Shown here: positions 58,442 to 63,526 of the stretch, piece after piece
Numbering within the stretch: the first letter of the stretch is position 1
Layout of the letters: every line of letters begins with the position of its first letter
Source of the DNA: Escherichia coli O127:H6 str. E2348/69
Lineage (GTDB): Bacteria > Pseudomonadota > Gammaproteobacteria > Enterobacterales > Enterobacteriaceae
Length of the DNA stretch: 64,000 nt
Direction: 5' to 3' (one strand)
NCBI RefSeq assembly: GCF_000026545.1
Contig: NC_011601.1
Notes under the pieces: generated by a model
Databases searched by the model: none
What the model was told of the DNA's origin: nothing
Seen by the model: only the letters and a program-made list of their open reading frames with translations
Made by a program: the position numbers and the translations under genes

Positions 58442-58516
58442 GTCCTCTTAGTTAAATGGATATAACGAGCCCCTCCTAAGGGCTAATTGCAGGTTCGATT
58501 CCTGCAGGGGACACCA
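58442..58516 (+). tRNA. argW: tRNA-Arg (anticodon CCU)
   Basis: gtcctcttagttaaatggatataacgagcccctCCTaagggctaattgcaggttcgattcctgcaggggacacca: cloverleaf with CCU anticodon loop, T-arm GGTTCGATTCC, no encoded CCA. Confidence 0.9.
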
Positions 58517-58677
58517 TTTATCAGTTCGCTCCCATCCGTACCAGTCCGCAAAATCCCCTGAATATCAAGCCTTACGTATATTCACGGTTCGTCATGGTTC
58601 GCGTCAGATCGTTGACAGCCGCACTCCATGACGGGTAAAAAGTGGATAAAATAATTTTACCCACCGGATTTTTACCC

Positions 58678-59835
58678 ATGCTCACCGTTAAGCAGATTGA
58701 AGCAGCAAAGCCGAAAGAAAAACCATACCGCCTACTCGATGGTAATGGCCTGTACCTTTATGTCCCTGTATCAGGGAAAAAGGTATGGCAGCTTCGCTAC
58801 AAGATTGACGGTAAGGAGAAAATCCTGACTGTCGGAAAATATCCGCTTATGACTTTGCAGGAAGCAAGGGATAAGGCATGGACTGCGAGGAAAGACATCT
58901 CGGTTGGCATCGATCCGGTAAAGGCGAAAAAGGCTTCGTCTAACAACAATTCATTTAGTGCGATTTACAAGGAATGGTACGAGCACAAGAAGCAAGTCTG
59001 GTCAGTAGGCTATGCAACTGAACTTGCCAAAATGTTTGATGACGACATTTTACCCATCATCGGCGGTCTTGAGATTCAGGATATTGAGCCGATGCAACTG
59101 CTGGAAGTAATCCGCAGATTTGAAGATCGCGGTGCAATGGAGCGAGCCAACAAAGCCCGCAGAAGATGCGGCGAGGTTTTTCGTTACGCTATTGTCACCG
59201 GAAGGGCTAAATATAACCCGGCACCTGACCTTGCAGACGCCATGAAAGGATACCGCAAGAAGAACTTCCCGTTCCTTCCAGCAGACCAGATGCCTGCATT
59301 CAACAAAGCACTGGCAACATTTTCAGGAAGTATCGTATCGCTCATTGCGACAAAAGTTTTACGTTATACAGCCCTAAGAACGAAAGAGCTTCGTTCCATG
59401 CTATGGAAGAACGTCGATTTTGAAAACAGGATTATCACCATCGACGCCAGTGTGATGAAGGGACGCAAAATTCATGTGGTCCCGATGTCAGACCAGGTGG
59501 TTGAACTTCTCACTACGCTAAGCTCAATCACCAAACCAGTCTCAGAGTTTGTTTTTGCCGGGCGCAACGATAAGAAGAAGCCAATCTGCGAGAACGCGGT
59601 ATTGCTTGTGATCAAACAAATCGGCTATGAAGGTCTGGAAAGCGGTCACGGATTCAGGCATGAATTCAGCACGATTATGAACGAGCACGAATGGCCTGCT
59701 GACGCTATTGAAGTGCAACTGGCACATGCCAACGGCGGATCTGTGCGTGGGATTTACAACCATGCTCAGTATCTCGATAAACGCAGAGAAATGATGCAGT
59801 GGTGGGCGGACTGGCTTGATGAAAAGGTAGGGTGA
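58678..59835 (+). mobile_element. intS: P4-family tyrosine integrase (phage integrase)
   Basis: N-terminal arm-binding domain and C-terminal catalytic domain (R...HGFRH...Y), directly downstream of tRNA-Arg; start set at MLTVKQIEAA (ORF track begins 36 nt upstream). Confidence 0.9.
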
Positions 59836-60065
59836 TCGACCTTAACAACTATCGAATAGCACAAAGACTTGCGGGCCAGTGCAAGGCGTTCTGTGTCTCA
59901 GTTTTGTCTAAGTGTTCTACTAAAACATAGTAAAATCGGTAACGGCTGGAAATCATTCAATACTCGCACTATCGAAAGTTCGCCAGCCAGCCGCAGCACG
60001 TTCTTGCATACGACGTGGCTGCGGCTTCCAACATTAGACAAATAACTCTTTAAATTGCTTTTAAA

Positions 60066-60281
60066 TTATTTCGTTTGAATGCCAGTAACAGGAAATCGTT
60101 TATATAGGGTTGATAGCCCAACGTTATAGATACGTGCAACATAACGCCGCGATTTCCCTGCCGCTATGAGCGCTCCCATCTGTTGCCACTGCTCGTCGCT
60201 AAACTTCGGTCTACGCCCACCAATCCGGCCTTTGGATCTGGCAATAGCCAAACCAGCTAAAGTTCCGGGATGACAGGCCAG
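60066..60281 (-). pseudogene. Remnant of a Gin/Pin/Hin-family serine DNA invertase: C-terminal HTH domain only
   Basis: ...GRIGGRRPKFSDEQWQQMGALIAAGKSRRYVARIYNVGLSTLYKRF matches the invertase C-terminus; frame opens only from 60281 and the ORF-track Met is a TTG; no catalytic N-terminal domain. Confidence 0.75.
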
Positions 60282-60625
60282 TTAACATGCTCAGGGTCGG
60301 TTGTTACATCAACAGCCTTAACCTGATTCTTATATAAAAGCCACGCCGAAAGTTTAGCTCTGTTGGCATCGCTGATTTCACCCAGCATCAGCTCTGTGCG
60401 CCAGTCGAGCATAATTGCATCAGCGGCGGACAGTAATCGCTGTCGCTCATTTTCAGCAGCCTGGATGAGTTGTTCATGAGTCGGTGGGGGATTAATAATT
60501 TCCATAGCCTCACTTCTGGTGATTGGCACAAGCCCTTCTTTGATAAAAGCATCCTGTGTGCCATACGCATCGTAGGCATATACGACGTTATTTTCATCTT
60601 TGTAATACTTCATCATTGTTATCAT
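60257..60625 (-). CDS. Phage tail-fibre assembly (chaperone) protein, short form
   Basis: 122-aa ORF with the conserved Tfa C-terminal motif (...[20 protein letters not shown]); directly downstream of the tail-fibre gene. Confidence 0.75.
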
Positions 60626-61668
60626 TTTTTATCCACCTCTGCCCAGGTAACATCTGACACAGTTCCTGAAAACTGCCGCACGACATAGGTCGCACCGGCA
60701 GGAACCATGAATGCGATAGTTGCTCTGTGCCCTGCAAGATTTGTTGTCTGATTGCCGCGAAAATTAGCCAAATTACCATCCATATTAACGTCGGCGCTCA
60801 GAAATGAACTACCGTCAGACATCACCGCATTGACGCTTACAAATATGGCGAAAGACTGGCTGTTGGTGTATACGACACCGAGATTTCTAGATTTCATTCC
60901 GCATTGACCAAACAACCCTTTCATATCTGAGTAGTTTTGTGATGCAGCAAGTGATGATGCGGCAACACCAGATTCTGTTGATGTTCTGGAATCAGATACG
61001 CGGATAATTCCCTTGTTTGTAGTGGTTGCATCATTAGTCTTGCCTTGCAGAGCTACAATATCCGCATAATTCATCGCTGCCGCTTTTGCTGTTGCAGCAA
61101 GCGTTTCAGATTCGGATACCCTTGATGATGTAAGTTGAACAATTCCTTTCTGTGTCGTAGTTGAATCCTGAGTTTTGTTTTGCAAAGATTTTATGTCCGT
61201 ATAGTTTTGCGCGACAGCATTAGCTGTGGCTGCAATATCCTCTGCACCCGATACCCGCGATGACGTTAACCGGACTAAACCCACCTGTGTTGTTGATGCG
61301 TTTTTAATACCAAGGTTTTCGAGAGCCGTTTGCACAGTGCCATCCGATTTGATATCGCCAAACGGATTCTTGCGGCTCAGGTATTCAACAGCAAACCCCG
61401 ATCCCAGCAATTCAACAAAACCGGGCAGATCACCATTATCAAGCACATCCCGTTGCGTTTTATCACTTACAAACTGGGCCAGAGCTGCAGCAATAAAGCT
61501 GGCCTGCCGAATAACCTTATTGACTTGCGCACTGGATGCTTTCCCTGCTGTAAATCCGGATATAAGCGCAGGCAACGCTTCCCATTCCTCCTGCGACATA
61601 ACATTGGCATTTCGATCAGTTGCAAACGCTTTAAAGTCATTTTTCGCCATCAGAGTAATACTCCCCAT
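60622..61668 (-). CDS. Phage side tail-fibre protein with three tandem fibre repeats
   Basis: 348-aa ORF; three ~43-aa repeats ([16 protein letters not shown]...[15 protein letters not shown]) characteristic of tail-fibre proteins. Confidence 0.85.
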
Positions 61669-62330
61669 GCCCCTACATCAAAACCACTGATGAATTCGTT
61701 ATCCATATCAAAACCAAAAAATTTAGAGCCTTCCGATGGAGTTTCCACCGAAGGTGTTTCAATGCCCCCCGCCCATACCCCGGCGGCTTTTACTGTTAGA
61801 TACCCCTGTTTAATTGCCGCAATTAACTCACGCGATACATCTGAAATATCAGTATCAGGAAAGACCCAGACCGATATCGTCATGTCCTGGTTATCGACTA
61901 TCTGCATTCGCAGCCCGGATCCTGCTGTTGCCGCGTCAAGAATTGCCGGAAGCGAATCATTCCGTCCGTCCCAGTTATTAATCGCAATCTTCGCTTTAAG
62001 AATGACACGATAAGTTTCATCGCTGAGATACATGTATCCTGAATCAGGATCGTATGGTCCCTGCCATACCCCCTGATCATATCCAAGCCCGTCGGTATCC
62101 CAGCTGAAATAGACACCTGAGATAGGCTGGCTGACAACACGGCTACGTCCGATCCACAATCCAAGAATGTCAAGTTGCACACCAACCGCAGAGTCAATAT
62201 CAAATGCAGTAATCAGCCCTCTGGTGGCAGCCGCAACATCAATAAGTGGCCGGGTCATCAGATCAACATGCGCAAGAAATTTAGGTTTGGTAGCGTGGTA
62301 GTTCGTGATTAGTTCGGTGTATTTGCTCAT
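61650..62330 (-). CDS. Phage tail/baseplate protein (Mu gp48 / DUF2313-like)
   Basis: 226-aa ORF between the baseplate J-like gene and the tail fibre, as in Mu-like tail modules. Confidence 0.7.
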
Positions 62331-63526
62331 GACTCCACCGTTATAACGATATTTTCCGGGGTACAGGACGTAGATTCGTTGTATCTGATATCAATGTTTG
62401 ATGACGACAAAGCCCCCGGGGATTTCCCAATCGTCAGTTCCTGAATATCGTAATAGCGTGCATTCCCGCCACTCACCACGCCAAGATTCGCCGGTGAGTA
62501 AATGCGACTTAAAAGGACCGAATCACCAATCATCAGACTATTGATATAGTCGGAAATAGCCTGCTGGATCTGCTGCCCTATCTGTGAGGTATAACCCGTA
62601 AAAACTTTTAATTTAATCCGGGCGTAAACAGGCACATCACTGGAACGCGAGAATTTGATTACATGGGGATTGCCGTATTTATCCGGAACCGTAACGGATG
62701 TTGTACCGTGAGTGGCTGTCCCCTGGCCTTTATTTCCTCTGATAGCCTGAGCAATATCCGTCACATCACCGCCATCCACAATTACAGCAACAGAGTGTGG
62801 CGGTAACCCGTTACCGTCCTCCGAACCAGTATCGTTTTCATAGAGTTTGTGGCGGGTTACACCGGTAACATTAGAAACAGCACCATCCAGTGCTTCAAAT
62901 GGGGTTATTGATGGCAACGCAACACTTTGCGACTGGCGGATACGTAACTCCGCATCAGTTTCTGCTGGAGTGCCTACAGTAGCTGCAGCAGGATTGGTTA
63001 CCGAAACCCAGCCACGGGTTGGCGTATTAATTTCAGTGATAGTTCCAGCCAGCGCCGCCACTGCACCACTGACAGAACATTTTGCGGTCACCATCACTGT
63101 ACCATCCACGCCGACCACCACTGAAGCAGGCAAACGCCATATCACATTATTACTGTCTTTCACGCTGCCATTAATGATGGTTGTTCCGGCAGTTCCTGTA
63201 AGAAGCAAATCAACCGTAGAATTCGTCGCGCCTTTACGTGAAATACCATTTATTTTCACGTTACTGGTCAGTGCAGCCCCATAGCCGGTTGCCGGTGAAA
63301 AACAGTTGTAGACAGTTATCGCCATATTATTGGCATCATGAATCGCCAGCGCCATCAGAGCCACCATCTGGCCGTCTTTGCTGTCCGGTTCGAGGTAGGC
63401 ATCACTGCCATAAATCTGCTGAAAATAGCTAATCAGGGTGCTGAGTATCGTCTGATAATCAGGCGCACTGATCCCCTCCGCGGTTACCTTTGCAGATAAA
63501 CCGAGAGAATCAAGGTTCAGAGCCAT
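62327..63526 (-). CDS. Baseplate J-like protein (Mu gp47-like)
   Basis: 399-aa ORF; size, position and overlapping stop/start junctions typical of baseplate wedge gene J. Confidence 0.7.
   Translation of the reverse strand: MALNLDSLGLSAKVTAEGISAPDYQTILSTLISYFQQIYGSDAYLEPDSKDGQMVALMALAIHDANNMAITVYNCFSPATGYGAALTSNVKINGISRKGATNSTVDLLLTGTAGTTIINGSVKDSNNVIWRLPASVVVGVDGTVMVTAKCSVSGAVAALAGTITEINTPTRGWVSVTNPAAATVGTPAETDAELRIRQSQSVALPSITPFEALDGAVSNVTGVTRHKLYENDTGSEDGNGLPPHSVAVIVDGGDVTDIAQAIRGNKGQGTATHGTTSVTVPDKYGNPHVIKFSRSSDVPVYARIKLKVFTGYTSQIGQQIQQAISDYINSLMIGDSVLLSRIYSPANLGVVSGGNARYYDIQELTIGKSPGALSSSNIDIRYNESTSCTPENIVITVES

Follow-up and report, generated by a model that had tools for sequence, protein, structure and literature searches.

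The tail-fibre gene of the prophage located at argW in Escherichia coli E2348/69 (EPEC O127:H6) contains three contiguous units of exactly 45 amino acids. These are very probably Phage_fiber_2-type shaft repeats of a trimeric fibre, which is itself a three-part chimera with an exchangeable cassette and a decayed invertase switch. The window, by which we mean the whole stretch of 64,000 nucleotides that was analysed (contig NC_011601.1), holds the fibre gene together with the integrase end of the prophage. The proposed architecture has three elements: an N-terminal anchor that would fit the baseplate of a SEN34/Brunovirus-like myovirus prophage; a short conserved joint that ends in a Pin-type crossover site; and a portable distal cassette, which comprises the three 45-aa repeats, a 90-aa TNF/C1q-like head and the downstream chaperone gene. 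Each unit in the trimer would add one fixed increment to the shaft, such that the unit number would set the distance between head and baseplate, while the head, assisted in its folding by the chaperone, would determine host recognition. An invertase system once active at the joint has since decayed, leaving a single locked form of the fibre. The features are the following, in window coordinates:

58442-58513, plus strand: tRNA-Arg (argW), from the annotated record and an Rfam scan
58642-59835, plus strand: IntS-type integrase, on which Pfam and PHROGs agree
60066..60263, minus strand: serine DNA invertase remnant, the C-terminal HTH third, equivalent to aa ~123-181 (HTH_7 8e-13; PHROG DNA invertase)
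60257-60625, minus strand: tail-fibre assembly chaperone gene (tfa, 122 aa; Caudo_TAP 1.3e-18, PHROG 188 5e-28)
60622-61650, minus strand: tail-fibre gene, 342 aa from M7 (mechanical ORF 60622..61668, 348 aa)
60625-60894, minus strand: C-terminal head domain, 90 aa (aa 259-348), all-beta, putative receptor-binding tip
60895-61029, minus strand: repeat 3 (R3), aa 214-258, 45 aa, the most diverged copy
61030-61164, minus strand: repeat 2 (R2), aa 169-213, 45 aa, the best Pfam PF03406 stretch
61165-61299, minus strand: repeat 1 (R1), aa 124-168, 45 aa
61300..61325, minus strand: relic of a 26-bp Pin/Gin-type crossover site, CTCTCGAAAACC TT GGTATTAAAAAC, with the constant half and core intact and the variable half degenerate
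61300..61380, minus strand: conserved joint, aa 97-123, common to fibres of unrelated tail types
61381..61650, minus strand: N-terminal baseplate-anchor module, aa 7-96, found only with the DUF2612/Phage_Wedge1 myovirus tail type
61650-62330, minus strand: DUF2612/Phage_Wedge1 gene (Pfam and PHROGs)
62327-63526, minus strand: Baseplate_J gene (Pfam and PHROGs)

The fibre gene and its three repeats

The identification of the gene as a tail fibre, made in an earlier note from the bare sequence, is borne out by its neighbours and its matches: DUF2612/Phage_Wedge1, Baseplate_J and sheath-initiator genes lie upstream, a Caudo_TAP chaperone gene that overlaps the fibre stop codon lies downstream, and PHROG tail-fibre families match the protein at 1e-62. 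The annotated record has yfdC, tRNA-Arg (argW) and intS, followed by the prophage in reverse direction: the invertase fragment, tfa, tail fibre, DUF2612 and baseplate J, with a complete tail and head module beyond them. The true start of the fibre is probably M7 at 61650, which yields 342 aa and is favoured because the PGAP annotation, with an ATGA overlap between this start and the upstream DUF2612 gene, agrees with the homologues; one of these (P0002) is 96% identical over its full length. By megablast, the 1,412-nt span of tfa and fibre has 100% identity only in three complete E2348/69 records, among ~1,550 complete E. coli genomes with a match, and a literature search gave no usable name for the E2348/69 prophage at argW.

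Self-comparison of the protein places its top diagonals at offsets of 45 and 90, with windowed scores of 99 and 68; the next diagonal reaches only 28. The tandem repetition described earlier therefore stands, with a period of exactly 45 aa (135 nt) in place of the ~43 aa given there; the interval assigned to it, 60910-61300, also holds apart from the distal end, which was off by about 15 nt from the true limit at 60895. Pairwise local BLOSUM62 scores between the units are 135, 90 and 92, against means of 22-25 (SD 4-5) for shuffles that preserve composition, i.e. z = 14-22. R1 and R2 have 28/45 residues in common, and R3 has 17-18/45 in common with the others. The Pfam family PF03406 (Phage_fiber_2) matches in two stretches with an E-value of 3.1e-14 and 52.7 bits (gathering cut-off 22), its model reaching no further than about residue 27 of each 45-aa unit. 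The protein, a tail fibre, has the tandem arrangement of this family: units of about 40 residues with a G-[IV]-V-x-L ... A-A-[TS] core. R1 and R2 retain G7, L11, S17 and A23/A24 of the family alignment, from which R3 deviates by a V at L11 and by AAS instead of AAT. The likeness to the repeat of E. coli side tail fibres, also pointed out beforehand, is thereby confirmed: lambda Stf (orf-401; E 9e-20) and Mu S each carry one PF03406 copy.

The periodicity is present at the protein level only. Neither Tandem Repeats Finder nor a DNA repeat search finds a tandem repeat, because the copies are only 62%, 50% and 47% identical in DNA and the duplications are old; third codon positions are near random, and the longest exact shared runs are 6-8 nt. 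By the Nei-Gojobori method pS between copies is 0.70-0.74 (saturated) and pN 0.26-0.45, which marks these as old duplications maintained at the protein level. That no repeat is detectable in the DNA, and that A, S and T abound in the region, could be taken to mean that the periodicity is a compositional artefact of a low-complexity stretch; this idea is already refuted by the scores against composition-preserving shuffles, the curated Pfam match and the indels of homologues, which fall exactly in register at 45 aa, and we give it practically no weight.

The end of the prophage at which the fibre gene lies offers some further observations. argW and the integrase mark the left prophage end, with the integrase directly beside the fibre end of the phage genome, and an Rfam scan of 57-64 kb finds nothing beyond the tRNA-Arg. 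A stretch of ~90 nt at ~59930-60016, with the integrase on one side and the invertase remnant on the other, is matched by megablast in 5,305/5,426 complete E. coli genomes, and in other E. coli genomes often adjoins DinI-like genes; it belongs to no Rfam family and contains no ORF that reaches 60 aa. A dinI-like gene may have been lost here, of which the stretch would be the flank or the terminator, because homology to another prophage (L004) stops 9 nt inside the dinI gene of the latter.

Unit structure and unit number

Each unit has two parts: a Ser/Thr-rich segment of about 21-24 non-helical residues, (A/S)TTxxKGI(V/I)xLxSSRxSxxE, and a second part of the form AA(T/S)AxAxAxNYxD(I/M)xxLxxK. 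Two AlphaFold runs agree in making the second half of every unit a helix of ~20 aa (pLDDT of the region 26-42), and the helix of R3 continues in the model into the head domain. The heptad a positions are hydrophobic in R1-R3 (I/V/I, L/A/I, V/A/M), and the d positions are T/N/L, T/N/L and S/N/L, with an invariant final Leu. This pattern would fit a short trimeric coiled coil of about three heptads in the second half of the unit. An AlphaFold2 monomer based on 29 homologues has a mean pLDDT of 48, with ~30 in the repeat region, and in a Foldseek search against the PDB yields no match at E <= 1e-3, just weak generic beta-sandwich similarity. A pseudo-trimer, modelled from a 19-row concatenated alignment with 60-residue Gly/Ser linkers between three copies of aa 122-348, raises confidence in the head alone, to a pLDDT of 75-83, and leaves the shaft at 26-42; hence neither the monomer nor the linked pseudo-trimer gives a confident 3-D model of the repeat region. 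Among PDB chains, sequence and profile searches find the motif in Mu S only, as a single copy at aa 112-154, and the sequence searches find no solved structure of a tandem PF03406 array. The family is listed among those repeat families without known structure in a 2021 survey (PMC8078820), and in the in-situ structure of Mu only the N-terminus of gp49 was built (PMC11915804).

The earlier suggestion that the number of repeats varies holds true, with one, two or three units in near-identical cassettes. In the 120 closest database proteins, an HMM of the repeat counts three units in 80, two in 38 and one in two, and all 120 have the same 90 residues after the last unit. Proteins with a common N-terminus form length series in steps of exactly 45 aa: 283/328/373, 279/324, 387/432 and 458/503. 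Alignment of near-identical cassettes places exact 45-aa (135-nt) indels at no fewer than four (>=4) different registers, with the following junction types: the body of R1 onto the tail of R2; the head of R1 onto the body of R2 (...VGLVR|LTSS...); R1 missing, with the anchor directly onto R2; and the head of R1 onto the tail of R3 (...AATA|LAVAQNY...), which leaves a single unit. One pair of two-unit and three-unit forms compared at the DNA level shows a clean 135-nt indel, whose ends lie between the short shared hexamers GAYATA...TTGCAA. Among 150 diverse representatives from a library of 1.84 billion proteins the family ranges from 1 to 16 units, with a mode of 2 and periods of mostly 44/45 or 56 aa.

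That the number varies by recombination and changes fibre length, as the same suggestion held, is inferred. Ordinary RecA crossing-over between the present copies is an unlikely source, because they share exact runs of 8 nt or less. A more elaborate proposal treats the 45-aa unit, made up of a beta-segment and a three-heptad coiled coil, as a discrete quantum of length: the polymorphism of one, two or three units would be an adaptive dial by which the head's reach is fitted to the depth of the O-antigen or capsule, in cassettes that circulate among at least three unrelated myovirus tail types and are newly captured at relic invertase crossover sites. We regard this full version as rather doubtful.

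The portable cassette and the relic of an invertase switch

The anchor, the joint and the cassette differ in their distribution. The N-terminal module is ~75% identical to the N-terminus of the fibre of Salmonella phage SEN34, and by analogy with the structure of Mu gp49/gp48 (PMC11915804) it may bind the baseplate wedge. By megablast, the first ~120 aa of the fibre (61309-61668, i.e. anchor and joint) are common to related E. coli prophages with different distal parts. Conversely, the distal cassette of repeats, head and tfa is found, at >=90% identity, fused to at least eight (>=8) different N-termini, three of which could be placed in their genomic context: a DUF2612-type baseplate (L004), Mu gp45-48-type (L007-9, L015, L016) and P2 gpH-type (L011). 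All these fusions converge on the conserved joint, and the megablast breakpoints in the joint region are at 61377, 61316 and 61309. Exchange of the cassette among unrelated tail types at this joint is the best explanation.

The joint ends in the relic of the crossover site. Its distal part is DNA-identical, over the 28 nt compared, to the constant part of e14 stfP. The pixL site within that gene, CTCTCGAAAACC TT GGTTTGGGAGAA, is identical to the relic through the core, plus 20 or more nucleotides upstream, and the variable half-site of the relic matches pixL at 6/12 positions. The relic was also compared with the inverted-repeat sites of another prophage (L002): DNA identity to both e14 stfP and L002 stops 3 nt past the core dinucleotide, and in L002-type prophages the homology to the window is lost at 61309, inside the crossover site. 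In these prophages the invertible segment, [Sv-tfa-tfa'-Sv'], is intact and accompanied by pinE and by an inverted repeat of 20 nt. The crossover site is thus the point at which the constant and variable parts of the fibre are fused. Fibres that carry PF03406 repeats and are switched by an invertase at 26-bp crossover sites have been described before (PMC4134206, citing Sandmeier 1994).

Directly after the tfa stop codon lies the serine invertase remnant, ~60 codons long and labelled 'missing N-terminus' by PGAP, with 69-71% identity to PinE aa 123-180 and to the recombinase found in P2-like prophages. The same remnant, at 98% identity, is present in prophage L004 at a different chromosomal site; therefore its decay is older than E2348/69. 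The window holds neither an intact invertase gene, nor two inverted 26-bp sites, nor a mirror-image C-terminus with tfa', such as characterize a fibre switched by a Din invertase. No partner crossover site is found in it at up to 3 mismatches, and for an alternative cassette in mirror image there are no inverted ORFs in the ORF list, the stop codon of tfa abutting the invertase fragment. As there is no intact invertase, second site or mirror cassette, no switching is possible, and judging by these sequence features the cassette is a frozen switching module, with the fibre locked in one form.

Compared with two P2-like prophages (L011 and L012), ~540 nt are missing at the invertase remnant. A large deletion that removed a mirror-image cassette was considered and set aside as unnecessary: P2-like prophages have the cassette, tfa and an intact recombinase without any mirror image, and because such prophages exist the loss of ~540 nt suffices.

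Three other prophages show how the same elements are arranged elsewhere. In L011 (2780-5604) an intact 183-aa recombinase comes after the three-repeat cassette and tfa, on the same strand and with no second cassette in mirror image; in L012 (2769-4317) the same tfa is accompanied by a 188-aa recombinase, and the fibre is cut to a 150-aa fragment that starts within repeat 2. Both have a pix-like AAACGAAC(C/G)TTT between tfa and the recombinase. In a related prophage of E. coli TBE6 (L003 2594-4683) the invertible fibre segment is broken by the IS4-like ISVsa5 and the recombinase is truncated, which is another, independent way of freezing the switch.

Head domain, gene integrity and related fibres

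No Pfam model matches the head domain. Its relatives form a diverse family of fibre C-termini that conserve the motifs SR.LGVTYTN...FxVPxGATY...W.E, and it is predicted to be a compact TNF/C1q-like jelly roll that can be superposed on TNF/C1q heads. The linker-joined pseudo-trimer model gives alignments of 130-135 residues to single-chain TNF/C1q trimers, suggestive of a trimer. Comparable heads sit on stalks in C1q, APRIL/BAFF, Bacillus BclA and the Bdellovibrio Bd2133 fibre tip, to which sequence identity is 10% or less, the fibre-head side of the comparison being the predicted model with its pLDDT of 75-83.

Two types of head allele occur: ...HR... versus ...NVNVDGNSANFRGSQ...QR.... Between them, 2 synonymous and 9-11 non-synonymous differences fall in the head, as against 11 synonymous and 3 non-synonymous in the repeats (Fisher p = 0.002), in a comparison of few substitutions and essentially two allele types, with comparisons that are non-independent. 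The repeats are under purifying selection between the alleles, with a dN/dS of about 0.09. The chaperone gene always travels with the head domain, directly downstream of it. The earlier attribution of receptor binding to the part beyond the repeats gains indirect support from the constant 90-aa domain, its cognate chaperone downstream and the excess of non-synonymous differences in head alleles, which together point to the C-terminal head as the putative receptor-binding part.

Alternatively, the repeats might themselves be adhesive, their Ser/Thr-rich segments binding LPS or O-antigen along the shaft, with copy number tuning avidity and not length. Lateral binding sites on fibre shafts do exist in other phages, the non-helical halves of the units are rich in exposed Ser and Thr, and R3 has clearly diverged further than the other two units. 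However, the repeats are near-invariant between alleles whose heads differ, their motif recurs in fibres of many phages with different hosts, and it is the chaperone-dependent terminal head that has a predicted ligand-binding trimer fold; we consider adhesion by the repeats quite improbable, and prefer their role as shaft units.

The gene could also be seen as a decaying relic of a defective prophage, in which the repeats would have no present function. The invertase beside the gene is truncated, only the three E2348/69 records have the exact combination at full length, and PGAP marks the gene 'incomplete, missing C-terminus' in NZ_LT827011. Such decay is unlikely given that the ORF is intact and ends in ...WAEVDKK like all homologues, that full-length relatives with 96% identity are present in other genomes, that the dN/dS of the repeats is low and that the annotated record continues with a full module for head and tail. 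The pseudogene call (NZ_LT827011.1, L001 20825-21394) spans only the first 190 codons of the fibre and is most likely an annotation artefact that arises from comparison with a longer reference protein, because the reading frame is open to its end, the 96% relatives are of the same length and the repeats are under purifying selection. Hence the flagged gene most probably encodes an intact tail fibre.

The systems closest to this fibre fall into three groups. The PF03406 fibres: these include lambda Stf, Mu S/gp49, P2-like gpH and the fibres of the EC958 prophages, and have the same motif, A-T-T-x-x-K-G-I-V-x-L...S...AAT.KAV. They likewise place it in the shaft of a trimeric fibre, in varying copy number, with a distal specificity domain and a Tfa chaperone beyond (PMC4134206). 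The E2348/69 fibre differs in having AATA(N/K)A(V/A)AxNYxDI where these have AATPKAVKxAYD, and its heptad-patterned helix is longer. Moreover, the repeats of the EC958 prophages precede the crossover site, in the 5' part that stays stable (PMC4134206), whereas those of the E2348/69 fibre come after the site and belong to the exchangeable cassette.

The SEN34 tail module: Salmonella phage SEN34 (Brunovirus) is the closest isolated relative, collinear in the tail module at the tail-fibre end, which is the part compared, and sharing the order spike, wedge subunits, DUF2612 protein, fibre and Tfa. Its fibre, SEN34_27 (381 aa; the Tfa is SEN34_28), aligns end to end at 37% identity; the N-terminal anchor and the head family are the same, and the repeats likewise number three. 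It differs in a longer linker before the repeats and in units that are more canonical and more irregularly spaced; further, SEN34 has no invertase remnant and carries an O-acetyltransferase gene after its tfa.

The Din-family segments: these comprise e14 P with pinE, Mu G with gin and P1 C with cin. The distal part of the joint matches e14 pixL exactly, as do the constant half and the core of the crossover site, and as in these segments a piece of an invertase gene lies downstream on the same strand. Unlike them, the E2348/69 prophage lacks an intact invertase, a second site and a mirror-image cassette.

Repeats of this kind are ordinary and have been described before, the genome is a well-known reference, and the finding is of little significance beyond annotation. 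What is added here are the exact boundaries of the units, the age of their duplication and their in-register polymorphism of one, two or three units, together with a predicted TNF/C1q-like head, a relic Pin site and an invertase fragment. As an example of fibre modularity, one distal cassette, with 1-3 shaft units, occurs on SEN34-like, Mu-like and P2-like tails, and this modularity could help to engineer chimeric fibres of a chosen length.
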